Below, piece after piece: positions 43,194 to 58,636 of a DNA stretch of 64,000 nt. A model generated the notes under the pieces. That model made no database searches and was not told the DNA's origin. It saw nothing but the letters and a program-made list of their open reading frames with translations. Location: NCBI GenBank assembly GCA_964415885.1, contig CAYQCE010000005.1:40141-104140 (forward strand). Direction: 5' to 3'. A program made the position numbers and the translations under genes. This stretch comes from an uncultured Ignavibacteria bacterium (GTDB taxonomy: Bacteria > Zixibacteria > MSB-5A5 > JAABVY01 > JAHJOQ01). How positions within the stretch are numbered: the stretch's first letter is position 1; every line of letters starts with the position of its first letter.

Positions 43194-43235
43194 GTCTAAT
43201 ATAGACCAACGTGGTCGAAGTTGGGGTTGTGTAAT

Positions 43236-44189
43236 ATGCCCGATCTGAGTGTAGGCGGACAGGCGGTTATAGAAGGCGTGATGATGCGTTCGACTGACCG
43301 TGTATCTACCGCTGTCAGGCGCGCAGACGGAACTATTGAGGTGCGGAATGAGGATTTCATACCGATCTCGAAGCGCAAGAAATTGCTCGGATTGCCGATA
43401 GTTCGTGGCGCGATTTCATTCATAGAGATGCTCGTGATTGGAATCCGCTCGCTCAACTTCTCCGCTGAAGTTGCCTCCATAGACATCGATATGCAGGAAG
43501 GCAAGGTTACGGATGGCAAGACGCCGTCCAAGTCGACCTCCCTGATGCTCGGCTTGACGGTTGTGATTGCGCTCGCTCTCGCGATAGGGATATTCTTCTT
43601 TCTACCGCTCTGGTTCTCCTCGCTTCTGGAGGTGGACCGTGATGCGCTCGCGTTTAACCTGGTCGCCGGCGGAATCCGTGTGGTGATGTTCCTCGCGTAT
43701 GTCTGGGGGATCTCGTTCTTCGGCGAATTCAAGCGGGTATTCCAGTATCACGGCGCCGAGCACAAGACCATAAATGCTTACGAGGATGGAGTTGACTTAA
43801 CGCCGGAGAATACCAGGAAGTACTCCACGCGGCATCCGCGATGCGGAACGAGCTTCATTCTGATCGTGGCTATCTTTGCGATGATTGTTTATAGTATCTC
43901 CGATACCCTATATGCGGTTTTGACGGGAAGCCCGCCAACGTTGCCGGTACGGTTTCTGATTCATTTCTCGCTTCTGCCGTTCGTTGCGGGCGGATCGTAT
44001 GAGCTTCTCAAGATATCCGGCAGGACACGCGAGAATCGCATAACGAAGTTCTTTATTGCTCCCGGAATATGGCTGCAGGCGATAACCACTCGAGAGCCGT
44101 CGCTGGGGCAGATCGAGGTCGCGATAGCATCTCTTAACAACGCACTCCGAGCTGAACCGGAACAGGATGAAGTCTCGGTGAGTAATTGA
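43236..44189 (+). CDS. DUF1385 (YqhQ-like) membrane-associated protein
   Basis: N-terminal [13 protein letters not shown] motif and HxxEH-like [13 protein letters not shown] segment typical of DUF1385; sits upstream of prfA as in many genomes. Start at the ATG giving MPDLSVGG. Confidence 0.8.
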
Positions 44190-44193
44190 TCCC

Positions 44194-45291
44194 ATGCTCG
44201 ATCTAATAGAACAACTTGAAAAGAAATTCCAGGATATTTCCGAACAGCTCGCCTCTCCCGAGGTCGTGAGCGATCCGAGGAAGATCAGGGAAGTTTCGAA
44301 GAAGCACCGCGATCTGTCAGACATTATGGAGGTCGCGCGCAAGTACCGCTCGGTCGTCAATCAGATCGCCGGCAACGAGGAGTTGATCGAGGAGGGTGGC
44401 GACAATGAGATCGTGGAAATGGCGGAGGAGGAACTCGAGGAGCTTCGCGACGAGAGGGAGAGCCTCGAGCGCGAGCTGAAGCTGCTTCTCGTACCGAAGG
44501 ATCCGAACGATTCCAGAAATACCGTGGTGGAGATACGCGCCGGGACCGGTGGAGAGGAAGCCGCGCTCTTTGCCGCCGATCTCTATCGGATGTACTCAAG
44601 GTATTCGGATGAGCGCGGTTGGAAGCTCGAAATTCTGTCGTCACATCCAACCGGCGTCGGCGGATTCAAGGAGATCATATTCCTCGTCTCAGGCGATGGC
44701 GTCTATGGCAAGCTGAAATATGAATCCGGCGTGCACCGCGTTCAGCGTGTGCCAGTCACCGAGTCATCGGGCAGAATCCACACGTCGGCGGCATCGGTAG
44801 CAGTGCTTCCCGAAGCGGAAGAGGTTGATATCAAGATCGATCCGAACGATTTGAAGATCGATGTATTTCGATCGACCGGCCCGGGCGGCCAGTCGGTCAA
44901 TACGACAGATTCCGCTGTCAGGATAACACACGAACCGACCGGATTGGTTGTGACATGCCAGGACGAAAAATCGCAGCATAAGAACAAGGCGAAGGCGCTG
45001 AAGGTACTGCGTGCGAGACTTCTGGAACGCGAGCAGGAAAGGCAGCACGACGAGATAGCATCCCAGCGTCGCTCGATGGTCTCGACAGGCGACCGTTCCG
45101 CCAAGATTCGCACCTACAACTTCCCGCAGGGGCGTGTGACCGATCATCGAATTGGCCTCACGGTTCATCAACTTGATTCCATTCTCCAGGGCGATCTTGA
45201 TGAGGTAGTCTCGGCGCTCTCCGTCGCAGATCAGCAGGAGAAACTGAAGCAGACGGAAAAGGCTGCAAAAGCCACTAACGAAGCATCGTGA
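44194..45291 (+). CDS. prfA: Peptide chain release factor 1
   Basis: GGQ motif ([21 protein letters not shown]); RF1-type PVT tripeptide ([10 protein letters not shown]); 365 aa. Confidence 0.95.
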
Positions 45292-46175
45292 AGACCTGGC
45301 AGGTAATAGCATCACTCTTAATCACCACTCTACTTCTGTTCATCGCAGACTTAGCGTCGGCACGACGATCGACACCAAAACGCATGGTAGCCGAGAATGA
45401 GCCGTACAGGCTGATTCACACGGCGAAGTTTGTCCACGAGGGCAGTGGCACATCGCCGCTCTTCGAGGTTCGCTTCGACGGCCCCAAGGCTCCGGGCAAT
45501 GTCACTCTTACTCTGATGTACGTCCCGTTGACCGAGGAGCAGATCAGGATGGGCCGGAACGTTAGCTTCATTCCACTCCGGATGATGCTCGCGGAGCATT
45601 CACTCGATATCTACGAAACTTTCGTGCCACCTTACCCAAAGGGTAGCGATATCCGCTATTACATCAAGGCAGCGGATGTGGACGGTGTGACGCTCGTTAC
45701 TCTTCCCGAAAATGCGAGTGATACAACGAACACCCTGCCATTCAGATTCGAGGGGATAGCTCCGGCCTGGCTGGTCGTGCTGCGGGTAGCCTTCACGACA
45801 GGCGCCGTTCTGACTGCCGCGCTCGCGTTCTTCACTTCGCTGAACATCCTGAGAGGCCGAGATGCGATAAATCTGCTCGGCAAGCAGGTAATGTGGGCGG
45901 CTATCTTCCTGTTCTTCGGACAGGTGATTTTTGCCACCATGTATGACAGGAGGGTCACCGGTCCGCCGGGATGGGGTGGCTGGCCGTTCGGCAAGTTCAG
46001 CTTGCACGACACAATGATCGAGATCGCGCTACTGGCCTGGATTTTTCTCACCGTGATTATGGCCGGCTCAGCGATTGCGAGAAGAGAGACGGCGAATCTG
46101 GTCATGCCGGAAGCTGCCGGGAAACTCACTATGGCCGCCTTCTTAATTCTGGCCGCAGCGATCGTAATCTACTGA
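45288..46175 (+). CDS. Hypothetical integral membrane protein
   Basis: GTG start overlapping the prfA stop; N-terminal TM/signal segment, soluble beta-rich region, four C-terminal TM helices. Confidence 0.5.
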
Positions 46176-46184
46176 TATTGTATG

Positions 46185-47201
46185 CTATTTCCGGAAGCAG
46201 CGCGGGTCTTTGCCGTACATTCCAAGATCGGCTGCGTAAGCTCGCGATCTGCAGCCCCAGCACTCGGTTAAAAGACTGCATCTCCGGCAACGCTCCGGTA
46301 GATTCGACTCGTCCTTGAAGCGCTTGAAGATCAGGTAATCCCTGTCTCTTGCGAATATCTCTCGAAGCGAGCCGTCACGGTGGATATTCCGGCGGTCGTC
46401 ACGAATCGTCGCGCACGGAGTTACCGAGCCATCGCACGTCACCGCCGCGGTTGCAGAGCAGTACTGCTTGTTCACACAGTTCATCGGGAATTCCTTCACG
46501 CCCCACTGACGGCTAAACCGCCGATAGACTCTGGCGACTTCACTCTCATCCGGAATGAACCGCGCGAGCTCTCCCGCATCCGATCCCGGACGAAGATATG
46601 TGTGATAGACATTAAGCGAAGTGCGAATCATGAACTCATCTTCGAAGAAATCGATAGTCCGGATCATATCCTCGGCAGTCTGAAGCCCGGTGTATGTAAC
46701 CGAATTCAGTATCTGCTCCGCGGGGTATCCCTCCGCAAGAAGTTTGCGGACGCCGTTGAGGATGATATCGAAATCGCTATCCGGCCTGTCAGGATGCAGA
46801 GTTTTGTACGCTCCTCTGTCTACGGTCGAAATGTGCACGGATATCAATCCGTTTCTGCAAAGTCTCGCCGTATCTGCCACGATTCCTTCATCAGAGAACG
46901 GAAGCCCACCGGTCCACATGTTGTTTCTGAGTCCGATAGATTCGGCATGCTCGAGATGCTCGAAGATCGATTCGCGTAACAGCGGTTCTCCGCCGAGCCA
47001 TTCGATTGCGGTGATACCCAATCTCGCTGAATCCTCGAGAATCTCAGCGATTAGCCCGTCGGAGAGAGTGTTGCGCTCCTCTGGAAGAGCGTTCATGTAG
47101 CAGTAGATACACCCCTGACGGCAAACATCTCCGACCTCGAGTTGAAGAGCGTAGATGCCGTCGCGATCGTATGCCTCGTTCAGCGCTTCGTAATCGATCA
47201 T
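46185..47201 (-). CDS. Radical SAM enzyme with C-terminal SPASM/twitch Cys-rich domain
   Basis: CxxxCxxC motif CRQGCIYC near the N-terminus; C-terminal cysteine cluster CSATAAVTCDGSVTPC...CRRCSLLTECWGCRSRAY...DPRC typical of SPASM-domain maturases; 338 aa. Confidence 0.85.
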   Translation of the reverse strand: MIDYEALNEAYDRDGIYALQLEVGDVCRQGCIYCYMNALPEERNTLSDGLIAEILEDSARLGITAIEWLGGEPLLRESIFEHLEHAESIGLRNNMWTGGLPFSDEGIVADTARLCRNGLISVHISTVDRGAYKTLHPDRPDSDFDIILNGVRKLLAEGYPAEQILNSVTYTGLQTAEDMIRTIDFFEDEFMIRTSLNVYHTYLRPGSDAGELARFIPDESEVARVYRRFSRQWGVKEFPMNCVNKQYCSATAAVTCDGSVTPCATIRDDRRNIHRDGSLREIFARDRDYLIFKRFKDESNLPERCRRCSLLTECWGCRSRAYAADLGMYGKDPRCFRK

Positions 47202-47314
47202 AGCATGTGACTCCGGTTAATCGTATAGAGCCACTAAACTATACGAATGTAACCCCCGGGATGCAACGTGGCTTCGACAAAATACGCGATATTGATCGGC
47301 TCTATTCCTTGTCT

Positions 47315-47725
47315 CTAATAGTTGCCGACCGACTCGCTTGATTCCTCGACCCATTCTGTGATGCTGGCCTGAACCTCGCTGATCATCTCTTCCGTTTCAG
47401 ACTTGAATTGCGCCCAATCCTCTCTGGTGGTACTTTCAATCTGATCCAGCCTGCTCTGAAGCTCGCTCTTTCTAGACTGAAGTTCGTCTATATGCCGCTG
47501 TACGGTCGTCGAGTCGACATCTTCGCTCTTGGCGAGACGATTCTGAAACTCGTCGATCTGTGATTGAACGTCATCTATGGCAGAGTTAATCTCGAGTGTT
47601 AGCCTGGTCTTGTCCTGACTCAGATTCATCTCTCCGGTCTCCTCGCCGCCTCCGCAAGAGATAATGAATAGACCTGCAGCAATTGTCAGCAGGATTGCCG
47701 GTAGTAGTCGCATGTAACGCGTCAT
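47315..47725 (-). CDS. Lipoprotein with coiled-coil region
   Basis: Signal peptide plus lipobox (LFIISC followed by GGG); Q/E/L-rich heptad-like repeats (QSQIDEFQNRL...ELQSRKSELQSRLDQIE). Confidence 0.6.
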   Translation of the reverse strand: MTRYMRLLPAILLTIAAGLFIISCGGGEETGEMNLSQDKTRLTLEINSAIDDVQSQIDEFQNRLAKSEDVDSTTVQRHIDELQSRKSELQSRLDQIESTTREDWAQFKSETEEMISEVQASITEWVEESSESVGNY

Positions 47726-48060: not shown

Positions 48061-48295
48061 GACGCGGCGATCTCATAGTCAGGCAATACTATACGGCTAC
48101 TTTGAGATTGCCACGCTCGCTACGCTCACTCGCAAAGACTAAGGTTTTGGGGTTTGTCAACAAGCCCTTGGGGACCGGGTCTGCAGTAACCGTTTTTGTA
48201 CCTTATGAGACAGTCTCCCCTCATCTGCCACAAGTTTTCAAGAAGGATCGCTTAATTTGGAGTCGGCAGACGAAAGCGTCTGCCGTTCGTCAAAA
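48061..48295. repeat. Mosaic interspersed repeat (modules M1 + M3), left flank of the BMC module
   Basis: M1 at 48104..48139 matches 14313..14348. M3 (CTCATCTGCCAC...GGCAGACGAAAGCGTCTGCCGTTC, 48222..48290) matches 51716..51790 in the same orientation. Contains the hairpin GGCAGACG-AAAG-CGTCTGCC. Confidence 0.65.
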
Positions 48296-48346: not shown

Positions 48347-48910
48347 TTAGAGAATCTCTCTGACTATCTCCGGCGTCGGACGCGGAATCACAACCTTGTT
48401 GACCAGAAGCCCCTGCCTGCCGATCACATCCGCGCCGGCATCCACGGCAGCACGTACGGCTGAGACCTCGCCGGTCATCGTGACGAATGCCTTGCCGCCA
48501 AGTGCCATCGCGAGCCTGATTTCGAGAAGCTCGACATCGGCGGCTTTCACCGCTGCGTCAGCGCCCTCGATCAGCGATGCGACCGAGAAGGATTCGAGGA
48601 TCCCCATAGCGTCAAGATTAGAGACAACGTTTGTGGCGGTCAGCGCTGGAAATATCGAGTGGTGAATGTTAGGAATGATGAAAGTATCGATCACGGCTTC
48701 TCTTGCTATCTCCTCACCGTCCTGGACGGACGAGGTGACCGCCGAGACATCCCCGGTGACCATCACGATGTATTTCCCGGAACAGATTGTCCGGTTCATT
48801 ACGAGTTCGACCGCGGAGGCCTTCAACATGGCATCCGCCGCCTCTATGCCCTTTGCGATTGATGAAAACTCAATCAGCCCAATTGATTCGCGGATAATAT
48901 CAGCCATCAA
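48347..48910 (-). CDS. BMC-T shell protein (tandem BMC domains), PduT-like with conserved Fe-S cysteine
   Basis: Two BMC domains (IGLIEFSSIAKGIEAADAMLKAS... and MGILESFSVASLIEGADAAVKAADV...VIPRPTPEI). TICSGKY aligns with the PduT TICPGKF cysteine that ligates the 4Fe-4S cluster. 187 aa. Confidence 0.85.
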   Translation of the reverse strand: MMADIIRESIGLIEFSSIAKGIEAADAMLKASAVELVMNRTICSGKYIVMVTGDVSAVTSSVQDGEEIAREAVIDTFIIPNIHHSIFPALTATNVVSNLDAMGILESFSVASLIEGADAAVKAADVELLEIRLAMALGGKAFVTMTGEVSAVRAAVDAGADVIGRQGLLVNKVVIPRPTPEIVREIL

Positions 48911-50226
48911 TTCACCTCTATGGTCACGGAATGATCGATATTTGAAACGCGCCCACTCATTGAAGCGTGTACCGGCGCGCCCAGCTCGCCGTCCGGGACA
49001 TCGCCGATCATGTCGCCCTCGGAGACATGCGCCCCGACGTCAACGAGCGGTTTGCATTCTGCACCGATATGCTGCTGCAGCGGAATGACTACCTTCTCGA
49101 TATCGAGTTCAGGCTCCGTGAACGGTGCCGGATTAGCATATGGGTTAAGCCCGAGTTTGGTCTGGAGTTTCTTGGTAGGCACCCGACGGTATTCCTTCAT
49201 CGGATGCTCCTTAACCGGCTCTGTCTGCTCCCACTTGAATCCCTTTGCCTTGAGCGCGCGTTTGGAGTAGACGCAGGCATCTCTCGGCTCGAGATCTTCC
49301 GGACACGCATACAGGCTGCAGATGTTGCACTCGCAGCAAAGAGTGGCGTGCGTCGACCAGTAATCGCGCTTCTCGCCCTCGAACTGAAGCGATCGCATAA
49401 CTTTGTGTGGCTCTATCTTGTAGCCGAGCAGGTACCTCGGACAATACTCAGTGCAGTAGGTGCACTGATCGCATGCGGACTTCCCGATTCGATCAGACTG
49501 ACGTTTCGGCATCGATTTGCGGTACACCAGCTTGTTAGATTTCGGCAAAATGATATACCCGCCCGATAGTTTCGTCACCGGACTCGCCAAGTCGGTCACT
49601 ACCTTCCCCATCATCGCGCCGCCATCGAGTGCCGCCGGCTCATCGTCATAGAAGCTCAAACCTCCGGCAGCGTCGATGAGGGTCTGAAGCGTGACACCAA
49701 TCGGGATCTCGACTGTCATCGGATTCTTGACTGCGCCCGCTATTGTGAGATATTTCCGCGTGACCGGCTTACCCTCGGATGCGTTGTTGATGTTGCGCAG
49801 CGTCTCGACATTGCTGACCACGCACCCGACCTGCAGCGGCAGTCCCTCCGGCGGAATGAGTCGTCCCGTGATCGAATGAACGACCTCGTATTCATCGCCG
49901 GCCGGATAGAAATCACCGAAGAGAAACATCTTGATGTCATGCTTTGGGCAGAGTCTCCGGAACTCGCCTACCGCACGTTTGTGCTTCTCCTTCAATGCTA
50001 TATATCTCTTGTCCGCACCCACATACTCACCGGCAAGATTAGTACCGCGAAGGATATCCTCGGCTTCGCGTTTCATTATCTCGTTGTCTTTGGCGAGAAG
50101 CGGTTCGCACTCCGCGCCATTGGCAAGATAGTATTCGACGCGCGAGTTCAGCTTAACATGTGTGGGAAAACCGGCGCCGCCAGCACCGACAACACCTGCG
50201 GACCTGACCTGCTCCTTAAGATCCAT
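48907..50226 (-). CDS. PduS-like RnfC-family flavo-iron-sulfur oxidoreductase
   Basis: N-terminal glycine-rich NADH/FMN-site motif AGVVGAGGAGFPTHVKL; two ferredoxin-type CxxCxxCxxxCP clusters (CDQCTYCTEYCP; CCECNICSLYACP); 439 aa. ATGA-coupled to the BMC-T gene. Confidence 0.85.
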   Translation of the reverse strand: MDLKEQVRSAGVVGAGGAGFPTHVKLNSRVEYYLANGAECEPLLAKDNEIMKREAEDILRGTNLAGEYVGADKRYIALKEKHKRAVGEFRRLCPKHDIKMFLFGDFYPAGDEYEVVHSITGRLIPPEGLPLQVGCVVSNVETLRNINNASEGKPVTRKYLTIAGAVKNPMTVEIPIGVTLQTLIDAAGGLSFYDDEPAALDGGAMMGKVVTDLASPVTKLSGGYIILPKSNKLVYRKSMPKRQSDRIGKSACDQCTYCTEYCPRYLLGYKIEPHKVMRSLQFEGEKRDYWSTHATLCCECNICSLYACPEDLEPRDACVYSKRALKAKGFKWEQTEPVKEHPMKEYRRVPTKKLQTKLGLNPYANPAPFTEPELDIEKVVIPLQQHIGAECKPLVDVGAHVSEGDMIGDVPDGELGAPVHASMSGRVSNIDHSVTIEVN

Positions 50227-50269: not shown

Positions 50270-50650
50270 TCATTTGTCCGATTCGGAGCCCCCGCCGTAC
50301 TTCCAGCTACCACCCTCAATACCCTTGGGCGGATCGCCTCTCCACCTTATGTACGCAAGATGAGAGTCGGAATGCACCTCATTGCTGTCGAGCTCAATCT
50401 CGTCAATGATGCCGACTACCGCCGCCTCGATGGAGGTATCCTCGTTGCCGACCGCGAGCCGTGCAGCGCGGCCGTAAGCCACCAGCACCATCTCGCCGAT
50501 TCCGGCGCCGAGAATGTCTGCGGCAACGACGATGTTCTTCGTGGGCTCCTCGTCGAGGTCGTATGGATGTATGATGAGAAACCTGAGCGATTCTATACTG
50601 GCAGTTTTCTTGGTGGACCAGAGAGTACCAACGACTTTTCCAACAAACAT
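50270..50650 (-). CDS. BMC-P vertex (pentamer) protein, EutN/PduN/CcmL family
   Basis: MFVGKVVGTLWSTKKTASIESLRFLIIHPYD... matches the BMC-P N-terminal consensus (M.vG.V.Gt.wsT.K). Roughly 35-aa C-terminal extension. Confidence 0.85.
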   Translation of the reverse strand: MFVGKVVGTLWSTKKTASIESLRFLIIHPYDLDEEPTKNIVVAADILGAGIGEMVLVAYGRAARLAVGNEDTSIEAAVVGIIDEIELDSNEVHSDSHLAYIRWRGDPPKGIEGGSWKYGGGSESDK

Positions 50651-50654
50651 AAAA

Positions 50655-51209
50655 CTACTTCCCCAACGCTTCCTTGATATTCTCGATAAGCTGAGTCTTG
50701 GAGGCGTGTGATATTTCCCGCCCCTTCATATCGAGTTTGGGCAGTTTGCGCGCGAATTGACGGAGATCTGCGACAGTCATTGCATCGAGTTTCTCATCCG
50801 TTATATCGAAATACCGTTCGGGATCGATCTCCGGCTCTTCCGTCCCGCCGCCATCTGAGGTTCTCTCACCTCGCCACTTCGCAGGGTTGGAACCGATCCC
50901 GCCGGGCGGTGTGGGGCGATATTTGGAAATGAAAGTGCCGGGTGGCAGAATGCTGCCGAGTAGTTCATCCGGTCGCGGGATAACATGCACCGCAATTAGT
51001 TCGCCAACCCTCTGCGCTGCTGCAGCACCCGCCTCCGCCGCTGCCTGAACGGCTGCAAGTTCACCTTCGAATTTGATTGTCACGAGGGTCCCGTCGGTTA
51101 CTTCTGCGGATGAGATATCGACTGCCGCAGCTTTCGCGGCGGCATCGCATGCCTCGATTGCGGCCACAAGGCCCGCTGTCTCGATCAATCCTAACGCATC
51201 CCTGTCCAT
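50655..51209 (-). CDS. BMC-H hexamer shell protein (PduA/CcmK-like) with roughly 100-aa C-terminal extension
   Basis: Canonical BMC domain ALGLIETAGLVAAIEACDAAAKAAAVDI...VGELIAVHVIPRPDELLGSILP. Start placed at the internal ATG (MDRDALGLIETAG) with upstream GAGGTG; a TTG at 51254 is an alternative. The C-terminal tail carries a Rho_N/SAP-like motif. Confidence 0.85.
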   Translation of the reverse strand: MDRDALGLIETAGLVAAIEACDAAAKAAAVDISSAEVTDGTLVTIKFEGELAAVQAAAEAGAAAAQRVGELIAVHVIPRPDELLGSILPPGTFISKYRPTPPGGIGSNPAKWRGERTSDGGGTEEPEIDPERYFDITDEKLDAMTVADLRQFARKLPKLDMKGREISHASKTQLIENIKEALGK

Positions 51210-51519
51210 CAACACCTCAATACTTGAGGGTAGCAATATAACATCATTCGCCAAACGAGCGCAACTTGTTTGATTGATATGGATAGCTCGTTCGATTTAT
51301 AGCTGACTTGAGTAGTTAAAACCTGACGGTTTTCTTCCTGATGTCTGACACAAATGGGTCTCGCTTTTGACGACCGGAATTGGATTTGGCAACTAAGTGC
51401 ATTAGAATGTCGGTGCACGAGACGTACACCAACCACGGGAAACTCTACGTCGCGTTCGCTCTTCTGTGGCATCGCGCGTTCGATACTAATGGATCGATCA
51501 CTATCTAAGTTGTGTGCAT

Positions 51520-51790
51520 GGCAGATGCCCTCATCTGCCACGTAAGACACGATAATAGGTTGCGGCAGATCTTGATCCCGCCATGCGCGGGATTGTGATC
51601 TGCCGATCGTTCGGTTACGATTTACATGAACCTGCGACTTACGAGCGGTCAGTTCACACTCGCCTGTGGCGAGCAGGAACTGACCGAACCAAGTCAAGCA
51701 CTTGTGAGACAGCCTCTCCTCATCTGCCACGGAGTTGAGAAGGGATCGTGTGATTCGACATCGGCAGACGAAGGCGTCTGCCGTTCATCC
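51520..51790. repeat. Mosaic interspersed repeat (partial M3 + M2 + M3), right flank of the BMC module
   Basis: 51563..51720 matches 25350..25500 (M2 hairpin core CGGTCAGTTCACACTCGCCTGTGGCGAGCAGGAACTGACCGAACC). 51716..51790 matches 48222..48290 (M3). An extra CCTCATCTGCCAC copy lies at 51524. Confidence 0.65.
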
Positions 51791-51917
51791 GATACCGTGT
51801 TTCTGCGCTCGCTTTTCTCGCTCCGCAACCCGGCCTACGCGTTCCACAGTCCTCATCGCGCCTCCGGCGCGAGTCAGGAGCGCAGGGATCCTGACCTGCG
51901 GGAAACACCCCGCGTGA

Positions 51918-56637: not shown

Positions 56638-58038
56638 CTATTTATCGACCACCGCCGCTGTCATGGATGCCTCTGTGACGAGGTTGCCATCGACGAATGC
56701 TCTCCCTTCCATCTTGCACGTATTGCGTCGGAACGCCACGAACTCCAGCTCGAAGCGAATCTGATCCCCCGGTATGACAGGCTTGCGAAACTTGACCTTG
56801 TCGATTCCCATGAAATAGACAAGCTTGTCAGCCGGTTCGTCGATTGCATTGAGCAGAAGGAACCCGCCCGCCTGAGCCATCGCCTCGACAATCAGCACAC
56901 CCGGCATAATCGGGTGGCCCGGGAAATGTCCCTGAAAAAACGGCTCGTTTATCGTGACATTCTTCAGAGCCACGACTTTCTTTTTGGGTTCGATATCAAT
57001 AATTCGATCTATGAGAAGGAATGGATACCGATGCGGCATAACGTCAAGTATCGAGCTGATATCGAGGAGCGCTCCTTCTTCAGTTGACATCCCTCCGCCG
57101 TACTTCTCCGAAATGAGCTGCTTTTCATATATCTTGCGCATTTTGCGAGCGACCGCAACATTTGCGGCATGCCCGGAGCGAGCCGCAAGAAAATGCGCCT
57201 TCACCGGAGCGCCGATCAGGGTCATGTCTCCCAGCAAATCGACAGCTTTGTGTCGCACAGGCTCGTTGTAGAAACGGAGTTCCTTGTCCTCGAGAATGCC
57301 GGTCGTGCCGAGATTGACATCCCGGTCAACACCGAGCATTTCCCGCAGCCGTCCCATTTCGTCTTCTCCGAACTCCTTGTCGACTATGACTATCGCCGTG
57401 TCGAGTCCTCCGCCCTTGATGATACCCTGCGAGCGCATCATCTCGACCTCCGAGAGAAAGCAGAATGTCCGGGCGGGCGCGAATTCATCCACGAACTCAT
57501 CTCGCAGCGAAACGAGAGATGTATACTGCGTGCCGAGAGCCTTGTTGGCATAGTCGACCAGAAATGTTATCCGGAATTCATCGGACGGAGTCACCACGAT
57601 ATCGACCTTGCGCTCAGGCTCTGAATAAGCGAACGGTTTGTCGAGAATCAGAAAACGCCGTTCTGCGTCCTGATCTACGAGCCCCGCCTCTAGGAGTTTC
57701 TCCACGAATGGAGTAATGGAGCCATCGAACACCGGTGGTTCGAGGTTGTCGAGCTCGCAGATTATATTGTCGATTTCGAGGCCGGCGATTGCCGCAAGGA
57801 CGTGCTCGACCGTATAGACCTTATTCCCATTTACTGCAAGGGTTGTGCCACGATTAAGGTCCGTAACGTGATCCACGATGGCGGGAATCTCCGGGCATCC
57901 GTCGATATCACAGCGAAGAAACGTGATCCCGTGATCGACTTCCGCCGGCCGGAAAGTGAGCTTCGATTTGCATCCCGTATGAAGACCGATGCCTTCGAGA
58001 GAGACGGGATGCGCGATTGTCCTTTGCTTATCGTTCAT
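56638..58038 (-). CDS. lpxC/fabZ: Bifunctional UDP-3-O-acyl-GlcNAc deacetylase / 3-hydroxyacyl-ACP dehydratase (LpxC-FabZ fusion)
   Basis: N-terminal LpxC (TIAHPVSLEGIGLHTGCKSKLTFRPA...HVLAA). C-terminal FabZ hot-dog fold (LLIDRIIDIEPKKKVVALKNVTINEPFFQGHFPGHPIMPGVLIVEAMAQ). Confidence 0.9.
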   Translation of the reverse strand: MNDKQRTIAHPVSLEGIGLHTGCKSKLTFRPAEVDHGITFLRCDIDGCPEIPAIVDHVTDLNRGTTLAVNGNKVYTVEHVLAAIAGLEIDNIICELDNLEPPVFDGSITPFVEKLLEAGLVDQDAERRFLILDKPFAYSEPERKVDIVVTPSDEFRITFLVDYANKALGTQYTSLVSLRDEFVDEFAPARTFCFLSEVEMMRSQGIIKGGGLDTAIVIVDKEFGEDEMGRLREMLGVDRDVNLGTTGILEDKELRFYNEPVRHKAVDLLGDMTLIGAPVKAHFLAARSGHAANVAVARKMRKIYEKQLISEKYGGGMSTEEGALLDISSILDVMPHRYPFLLIDRIIDIEPKKKVVALKNVTINEPFFQGHFPGHPIMPGVLIVEAMAQAGGFLLLNAIDEPADKLVYFMGIDKVKFRKPVIPGDQIRFELEFVAFRRNTCKMEGRAFVDGNLVTEASMTAAVVDK

Positions 58039-58167
58039 TACAGGACTCGATTATAATACTGCCCCGAAGGATTGTAAACTACTTTTTCTGCTCTCATAAG
58101 CCGTGCGGATCTCCATTTGCGCAAGATTGTTGACATTTGCTGCAGAATCGATATTATCACTGCATCG

Positions 58168-58222
58168 ATCGGCGATGGAGTTCGCCGCCAACCGCCGTCA
58201 AGGCTGATGACTCCTGTGAAAA
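58168..58222 (+). promoter_or_regulatory. Fluoride riboswitch (crcB RNA motif)
   Basis: GGCGATGGAGTTCGCC-GCCAACCGCC-GTCAAG-GCTGATGACTCCTGTG matches the fluoride-riboswitch consensus (GGCGAUGgnGuuCGCC...AACCGCC...GCUGAUGAunCCU). Located about 35 nt upstream of the crcB start. Confidence 0.85.
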
Positions 58223-58255
58223 TGCAACCGTGAACTTTCTGCCCGGAGTTGTTGT

Positions 58256-58636
58256 ATGTCAAAGATACTCGTAATCGGTCTTGGTGGCCTCATCGGGGCT
58301 ATCTCTCGTTACTACCTGAGTGAATATGTCCACAAAGTCCTCGGAGCTTCATTTCCCTATGGCACCTTGTCCGTGAATGTGCTCGGCTGCATGCTGGCCG
58401 GTTGCGTAATGTTTGCGGTAGAGGAGAAGCAAATATTCTCGCCCGAGATGGGATTGTTTATCTCGGTTGGGATACTTGGAGCGTTTACCACTTTTTCAAC
58501 CTTCGGATACGAAACTGTAGCTCTTCTGAGACAGAACCACTTTATTCCGGCTATGAGCACCGCTGCCGCAAATGTCATATTCGGTTTGGCGGCAGTATGG
58601 CTCGGTAGATCGGCCCTGCGGTTGCTCGTAGGGTGA
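58256..58636 (+). CDS. crcB: Fluoride ion channel CrcB/FluC
   Basis: 126 aa, 4 TM helices; GGxIGAxxRY motif (GGLIGAISRY) and the TTFSTF motif. Confidence 0.95.
   Translation: MSKILVIGLGGLIGAISRYYLSEYVHKVLGASFPYGTLSVNVLGCMLAGCVMFAVEEKQIFSPEMGLFISVGILGAFTTFSTFGYETVALLRQNHFIPAMSTAAANVIFGLAAVWLGRSALRLLVG

Follow-up and report, generated by a model that had tools for sequence, protein, structure and literature searches.

A single-domain BMC-H shell protein with a folded C-terminal tail is encoded in the window, by which we mean the whole 64-kb stretch of DNA that was analysed. The tail is a divergent helix-extension-helix (HeH) domain of the Rho_N/SAP/LEM class, nearest to Rho_N and not SAP proper. 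In this protein of 184 aa, a canonical BMC-H domain is followed by a linker (about 50 aa) and then, at the C-terminus, by a compact helical domain (about 57 aa). Proteins of this design form a widespread, sharply defined and apparently undescribed family.

A tailed BMC-H protein had been proposed in the preliminary description of this DNA, and the minus-strand ORF 50655..51254 does contain the two strings quoted there, VHVIPRPDELLGSILP and LDAMTVADLRQFARKLPKLDMKGREISHASKTQLIENIKEAL, as written. The gene and the parts of its product are located as follows:

50655..51209, minus strand: tailed BMC-H gene, with the ATG at 51209 and the stop codon at 50655-50657 (ORF listing, homolog starts and ribosome-binding site)
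51213..51218, minus strand: Shine-Dalgarno-like GAGGTG, 5 nt before the ATG (direct sequence reading)
50970..51197, minus strand: BMC domain, residues 5-80, non-permuted, with edge Lys26 and IPRPD (Arg79) (Pfam PF00936, AF2 and alignment)
50913..50951, minus strand: semi-conserved segment immediately after the BMC domain, ILPPGTFISKYRP (alignment consensus ILPxxRY[IV]SKYHP)
50829..50912, minus strand: Pro/Gly-rich linker, residues 100-127, predicted to be disordered and variable within the family (AF2 and family comparison)
50658..50828, minus strand: C-terminal helical HeH (Rho_N-like) domain, residues 128-184, core V146-I179 (signature V-x2-LR-x2-AR-x8-GR-x-IS-x-A-x-K-x2-L)

The true start of the gene is likely the ATG at 51209, which would give a product of 184 aa, because the GAGGTG ribosome-binding site lies 5 nt upstream and the N-termini and lengths of the homologs agree: the closest of these (93-70% identity) all open with MDR[DE]ALGLIE and are 182-184 aa long. 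The span 50655-50960 takes in residues 84-184 and the stop codon, which make up the entire C-terminal extension.

The BMC domain matched PF00936 over the full profile (positions 1-75, E 3.4e-22, 78.6 bits against a cut-off of 24.5), and it is the only BMC domain of the protein above the Pfam gathering cut-off. Its elements are in the canonical, non-permuted order, with the edge lysine and the PRP[HD] motif of hexamer-hexamer contacts. In a 47-sequence alignment, residues K26, I77, P78 and P80 were invariant, and the window reads IPRPD. The available part of the Sutter 2021 catalog names KAAN and (P/A)RPH motifs (PMC8217296); the Asn of the KAAN motif is absent from the window's BMC domain. A BMC-P gene lies 4 nt downstream and a BMC-T gene belongs to the same cluster, and shell genes are associated with the tailed gene in its relatives too. 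By these features of its sequence, the gene product is a BMC-H shell protein predicted to form hexamers, the model described here being that of a monomer. This AF2 monomer of the full protein agrees with the three-part architecture, with an ordered BMC domain (pLDDT 90-97), a low-pLDDT linker and a confident tail (pLDDT 85-91).

The linker had been described as a Pro/Gly-rich stretch of roughly 100 aa. The composition was correct (15 of 51 residues are Pro or Gly), but the linker, from ...ILP (residue 89) to LDAM (residue 141), is 51 aa long, and the whole extension is 95 aa. The segment ILPPGTFISKYRP was modelled by AF2 at low pLDDT (53-64), and values fell below 50 at residues 101-127. Family linkers are 22-331 aa long, with a net charge of -0.36 to +0.17 per residue, and their composition varies freely. 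In low-GC lineages with long linkers, the linkers reach about 320 aa and are often extremely acidic. A second, mid-linker motif, [ST]I[SE]RLR[RK]EALG, is found in long-linker, low-GC relatives (P0244, P0232, P0242, P0216, P0217, P0222 and others); it is amphipathic and recalls encapsulation peptides, and the window's protein lacks it.

Profile searches with the tail matched both of the domains named in the preliminary description, Rho_N and SAP, with all Pfam scores under the gathering cut-offs. Rho_N (PF07498) scored 15.5 bits with the window's full protein, 17.7 with the extension and 21.0 with the tail alone (cut-off 24.9), the E values for the window's tail being 3.3e-4 to 3.5e-3 (Pfam). 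The same model matched 36 of 51 family tails at E<=0.01 (best E 5.2e-7), and no unrelated family was recurrent. Ten diverse full-length relatives scored at most 24.8 bits, all under the gathering cut-off, and it is because the Rho_N scores stay below this threshold that databases label such proteins only as 'BMC domain-containing'. SAP (PF02037) matched the window's tail at E 2.4e-4 to 2.4e-3 (15.4-21.1 bits, cut-off 23.9), together with 18 of the 51 family tails. A true SAP domain was rejected, since the match is below the cut-off and covers the first helix only (profile positions 2-17 of 37). SAP and LEM are eukaryotic HeH modules, whereas the tail occurs in a prokaryotic context. The PHROG family 'endonuclease VII' was matched by 14 of the 51 tails, and none of the NCBIfam models matched the tail.

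The template-free AF2 model of the tail was confident (pLDDT 89.9), with helices at positions 2-6, 9-18, 26-31 and 34-45 (model numbering) forming a helix-extension-helix fold superposable on known Rho_N/HeH members. By geometry, Foldseek matched the tail best to E. coli Rho, at TM 0.70-0.76, and to Slx4 in the Slx1-Slx4-DNA complex 7cq4, at TM 0.67, in a search of PDB and BFVD in which no match reached E<=0.001, as the query was only 47 aa long, and ranking was by TM-score and rmsd alone. The viral (BFVD) matches included named Rho_N-like proteins. At the sequence level, the tail profile gave only chance-level matches to PDB chains (N-WASP and lysozyme, E>=0.036), and hhalign of the profile against E. 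coli Rho 1-130 alone was not significant (E 0.062), the expected helices being aligned with a 5-residue insertion. Compared with the Rho_N bundle (PF07498; PDB 1a62), the inter-helix segment of the tail is about 5 residues longer and has its own GR-x-IS-x-AN motif. The tailed protein also differs from Rho in that it has neither an OB fold nor an ATPase, and its HeH domain is C-terminal.

Two other identities of the tail were considered and rejected. A EutK-type tail was not recovered, as the NCBIfam EutK model aligns only over its positions 3-81 of 166, which correspond to the BMC domain. An encapsulation peptide is an amphipathic helix of about 18 aa at the terminus of a cargo enzyme, joined by a poorly conserved linker, whereas the tail is a folded multi-helix element of about 57 aa on a shell protein, and the linker is the only feature in common.

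The signature of the tail is fixed across the family, V-x2-LR-x2-AR-x8-GR-x-IS-x-AN-[KR]-x2-L, and its spacing was constant in 226 of 227 motif-positive sequences. Eight residues (V146, L149, R150, R154, G163, R164, S167 and A169) were invariant in the 47-sequence alignment. At positions left free by the search pattern, conservation among the 227 sequences was 97-100% (A153, A169, K/R171 and L174) or 84% (N170), and Arg was chosen at positions 150, 154 and 164 even though the pattern also permitted Lys. The 34-aa core has a mean net charge of +4.05 (positive in 149 of 151 members) and a median pI of 10.9.

The same tail was found in 82 of the 120 best database matches to the full protein, the source names indicating Zixibacteria. 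A tail profile of 48 columns, searched against 1.84 billion cluster representatives, recovered 821 clusters (50% identity) at E<=1e-3 and 334 at E<=1e-10. An N-terminal BMC domain was present in 102 of 142 new representatives, the remainder being mostly partial metagenomic calls. The domain is always C-terminal, ending a median of 6 residues from the C-terminus, and it is nearly always on a BMC-H protein; one tandem-BMC protein bears it. The extension was present in all the close orthologs and also in distant ones, so the annotation artefact that the preliminary description had allowed for does not explain it.

Stand-alone tail genes were rejected as a separate family: P0136 is the remnant of a degraded pair of tailed BMC-H and BMC-P genes, and most of the others are contig fragments, apart from P0178, which is on a 697-nt contig and is assigned to neither group. 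A degraded locus (L036, 3071-3549) contains a BMC domain with internal deletions, an intact-looking tail ORF of 50 aa and a BMC-P remnant, downstream of a sigma-54 activator also found in intact Zixibacteria loci. Evidently, some lineages are in the process of losing the pair.

Scanning genomes with a narrow pattern derived from a 7-tail alignment yielded 25 loci, all from MAGs, and in all 25 the tail and a BMC domain were in one ORF. Nine loci were from Ignavibacteria/Ignavibacteriota, five from Zixibacteria, three each from Latescibacteria and Bacteroidota, two from Planctomycetota, and one each from Calditrichaeota, GN15 and Gemmatimonadetes. The Zixibacteria and Calditrichaeota loci contain the tailed BMC-H and BMC-P genes, usually with PduS-like and BMC-T genes and sometimes with a sigma-54 activator upstream; in loci of the Zixibacteria type, the tailed protein is the only BMC-H nearby. 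The Ignavibacteria and Bacteroidota loci have a plain BMC-H gene followed by the tailed one, with unrelated neighbours, and no BMC-P was found within 10 kb of the tailed gene. In Latescibacteria, the tailed gene lies 2-4 kb downstream of the shell and enzyme genes (PTAC / H / H / P / AldDh / P / P / class II aldolase) of a complete locus, which we read as PVM-like. The tailed gene is solitary in one Zixibacteria genome, which is complete, and also in a second lineage, where it lies between ruvX and thrS-infC. The solitary gene of this second lineage (L007/L008 10001-10930) encodes a divergent tailed BMC-H (P0253, BMC score only 38.7 bits) and sits among the housekeeping genes relA, ruvX and thrS, infC, rpmI, rplT, with no other shell genes within 10 kb. 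A search of viral contigs for relatives found none.

In the window, the tailed BMC-H gene is the first of a tight four-gene cluster on the minus strand, which holds all the BMC-domain ORFs of the 64 kb. The other three genes are the following:

50270..50650, minus strand: BMC-P (EutN/CcmL) vertex protein, 4 nt downstream of the tailed BMC-H gene (Pfam PF03319, E 2.8e-26)
48907..50226, minus strand: PduS/RnfC-like flavin and Fe-S oxidoreductase (Pfam: Complex1_51K, SLBB, 2x4Fe-4S and a C-terminal RnfC_N barrel)
48347..48910, minus strand: tandem-domain, PduT-like BMC-T with the Cys motif RTICSGKY, overlapping the PduS-like stop by 4 nt (Pfam: two BMC domains, E 8.3e-50)

The BMC-P protein has a C-terminal extension past the EutN fold, the first 20 or so residues of which (D..Y.GDLD..K..FKK) are conserved in Zixibacteria-type relatives, and the window's protein adds about 20 further Trp/Gly-rich residues; in Zixibacteria-type lineages, the extended BMC-P always adjoins the tailed BMC-H. 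The PduS/RnfC-like protein scored 241.8 bits against the NCBIfam rnfC subfamily (cut-off 245.95), and its RnfC_N barrel, at residues 377-435, leaves no space for a terminal targeting peptide. The BMC-T protein matched NCBIfam PduT (TIGR02526) at E 1.8e-40, under the model cut-off, and we take the Cys of its RTICSGKY motif to correspond to the PduT Fe-S ligand. As a pair, the two proteins resemble a module for conducting electrons, with no client pathway that is obvious. The Zixibacteria BMC-T ortholog is classed as Ts_steelBlue/T_pdut in the available part of the Sutter 2021 supplement. No cargo enzymes were found near the cluster, whose neighbours are prmC, tldD/pmbA, a gene for a small secreted-looking protein and one for a radical-SAM/SPASM protein.

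The termini of PduA are on the concave face of the hexamer, which is cytoplasmic in recombinant shells, although the orientation in native BMCs is partly disputed and some concave-in evidence has been cited (PMC6109187). Since the termini of non-permuted BMC-H proteins lie on this concave face, cytosolic in solved recombinant shells, a hexamer of the tailed protein would carry its six tails on the outer side of the compartment. Across the lineages examined, no conserved partner gene was found beside the tailed gene, and because this holds over differing locus contexts, the ligand of the tail should be either the shell itself or a universal component of the cell (nucleic acid, another polyanion or core machinery). 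Our own reading, put forward tentatively and from sequence and predicted fold, is that the basic HeH tails may bind DNA or RNA multivalently and so anchor or position the shells. We favour nucleic acid because most of the proteins related to the tail in sequence or structure handle nucleic acids, and because the tail has three invariant Arg. On this reading, the tails would have a high avidity for a ubiquitous polyanion, most likely nucleic acid (nucleoid DNA or RNA), and their binding would anchor, space or partition the shells, as a built-in alternative to adaptors such as McdAB. Against this reading, the strongly acidic linkers of many relatives could mask the basic tail domain, and Rho itself binds RNA mainly via its OB fold and not via the helical bundle.

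A broader proposal, which we regard as doubtful at this stage, is that these loci represent a large undescribed shell class of the FCB/PVC groups that would bind nucleic acids directly via a shell-fused HeH domain. Such shells would be tethered to the nucleoid, to be positioned and inherited without an adaptor, or would serve some function related to nucleic acids instead of acting as classical metabolosomes. Many of the tailed-shell loci are minimal, consisting of H+P, H+H or H alone, and lack cargo enzymes in their vicinity.

Alternatively, the tail might be an external protein-docking module, recruiting a cytosolic partner (such as an electron donor, a chaperone, RNA polymerase or the ribosome) or clustering shells through other shells or their acidic linkers. 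We consider this unlikely, as no candidate for a partner gene is conserved beside the tailed gene across lineages. Furthermore, the tail core is positive family-wide, whereas the charge of the linkers runs from acidic to basic, so that a pairing of linkers with tails cannot be general.

The tail could also face the lumen, as a scaffold or recruiter of cargo (the PduS-like protein or unlinked enzymes) and a shell-borne counterpart of the encapsulation peptide. Some evidence that native BMCs have the concave face inward (PMC6109187) would be consistent with such a location, as would the amphipathic mid-linker motif of the long-linker relatives, with its likeness to encapsulation peptides, and the many loci without recognisable cargo bearing a targeting peptide of its own. 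However, BMC-H termini are outside in the solved recombinant shells, the tail is a folded 57-aa domain rather than an 18-aa amphipathic helix, and it is found both with and without a PduS-like protein and, in Latescibacteria, by a different BMC type. A role as lumenal scaffold is thus improbable.

We attach a similarly low probability to a ligand-free modulator of assembly, in which linker and tail would form a 'bristle' whose steric or electrostatic effect limits sheets or nanotubes, tunes facet size or keeps the hexamers in solution. The linkers are indeed long, disordered and variable, and in loci of the Zixibacteria type the tailed protein, as the sole BMC-H nearby, must itself build the facets. 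However, a folded domain with eight invariant residues, three strict Arg and fixed spacing across phyla would be superfluous for mere bulk. Finally, an artefactual extension (in-frame read-through, a mis-called gene or chance resemblance) has practically no chance of being correct: the window's Rho_N and SAP scores are below the curated Pfam cut-offs, but 821 clusters keep the extension, it is in frame with the BMC domain at 25 of 25 loci, its model is of high confidence, and the tail-only calls examined were gene remnants (L036) or contig fragments.

Turning to known systems, the preliminary description was not aware of any BMC shell protein with such an appendage. EutK is the closest precedent for a helical C-terminal domain on a shell protein, as it carries a C-terminal helix-turn-helix that is suggestive of nucleotide binding, with no role identified (PMC5821096), although its fold is a different one. 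The two proteins are alike in being single-domain BMC-H proteins with a small helical C-terminal domain, and their BMC domains are homologous (NCBIfam EutK, E 8.3e-19); the tailed BMC-H differs in its HeH fold, its long disordered linker and its occurrence in MAGs of the FCB/PVC groups rather than in enteric eut operons. According to the available part of the source, McdAB couples carboxysomes to the nucleoid for spacing and inheritance (PMC7182216). That system consists of a separate ParA-type ATPase and a shell-binding adaptor, whereas the putative module described here is fused to the shell protein with no linked ATPase; the likeness lies in the proposed outcome alone and is a functional analogy. 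BMC-H extensions of up to 200 residues, mostly C-terminal and clustered on the tree, are reported in the available part of the Sutter 2021 catalog, the text of which, as far as it was accessible, contains no mention of Rho, SAP, an HeH domain or Zixibacteria (PMC8217296). Full-text literature searches returned no paper joining microcompartments with Rho_N, 'Rho termination factor', the SAP domain or Zixibacteria. In the part of the Sutter 2021 supplement that was available, the BMC-P and BMC-T of one Zixibacteria genome are tagged 'fragmented (sat) (omitted)', no BMC-H entry of that genome being found there, and the tail flags such shell loci, which were set aside as fragmented in the main BMC catalog.

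The tail family, a widespread 57-aa domain with three invariant Arg, provides a handle on the positioning and inheritance of metabolosome-type microcompartments and on their links to the rest of the cell. Should the tail prove to bind DNA or RNA, the coupling of an organelle to the nucleoid would be achieved by a single protein, and shell engineering would gain a natural module on the outer face of the shell.

The surroundings of the cluster yielded several further observations. A direct repeat of about 90 nt (81-90% identical), at 48200-48295 and 51699-51793, brackets the four genes, one copy lying 50-145 nt after the BMC-T stop and the other following the prmC stop by about 125 nt and preceding the start of the tailed BMC-H gene by about 490 nt. 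Each copy carries the palindrome CGGCAGACG-AAR-CGTCTGCCG. The window contains exactly two copies, with zero expected by chance; the repeat has no U-tract, no Rfam match and no copy in 34 related loci. An element resembling a terminator or a REP is one possibility, and a remnant of the insertion or inversion of the cluster is another. Compared with the closest relative (L001, 2981-5943), the gene order at 43221-46175 of the window differs, the tldD-pmbA-prmC-BMC cluster block being inverted relative to DUF1385-prfA-unknown, and the window has an insertion of a lipoprotein-like gene and a radical-SAM/SPASM gene at 46185-47725.

Because relatives carry an upstream sigma-54 activator, a sigma-54 promoter was searched for upstream of the tailed BMC-H gene, and none was found, the numbers of matches being at chance. 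Sigma-70 and terminator scans likewise gave matches at chance level, and Rfam returned nothing in the two non-coding gaps flanking the cluster. Within the window, the sigma-54 consensus (TGGCAC-N5-TTGCA) is matched exactly only once, at 57835-57850 on the minus strand; as this site falls inside the 5' part of the minus-strand ORF 56638-58038, the true start of this ORF may be further downstream. Rfam identified a fluoride riboswitch (RF01734, 58.6 bits, gathering cut-off 34, E 1.1e-13) at 58162-58223 on the plus strand, directly 5' of a 126-aa ORF at 58256-58636.
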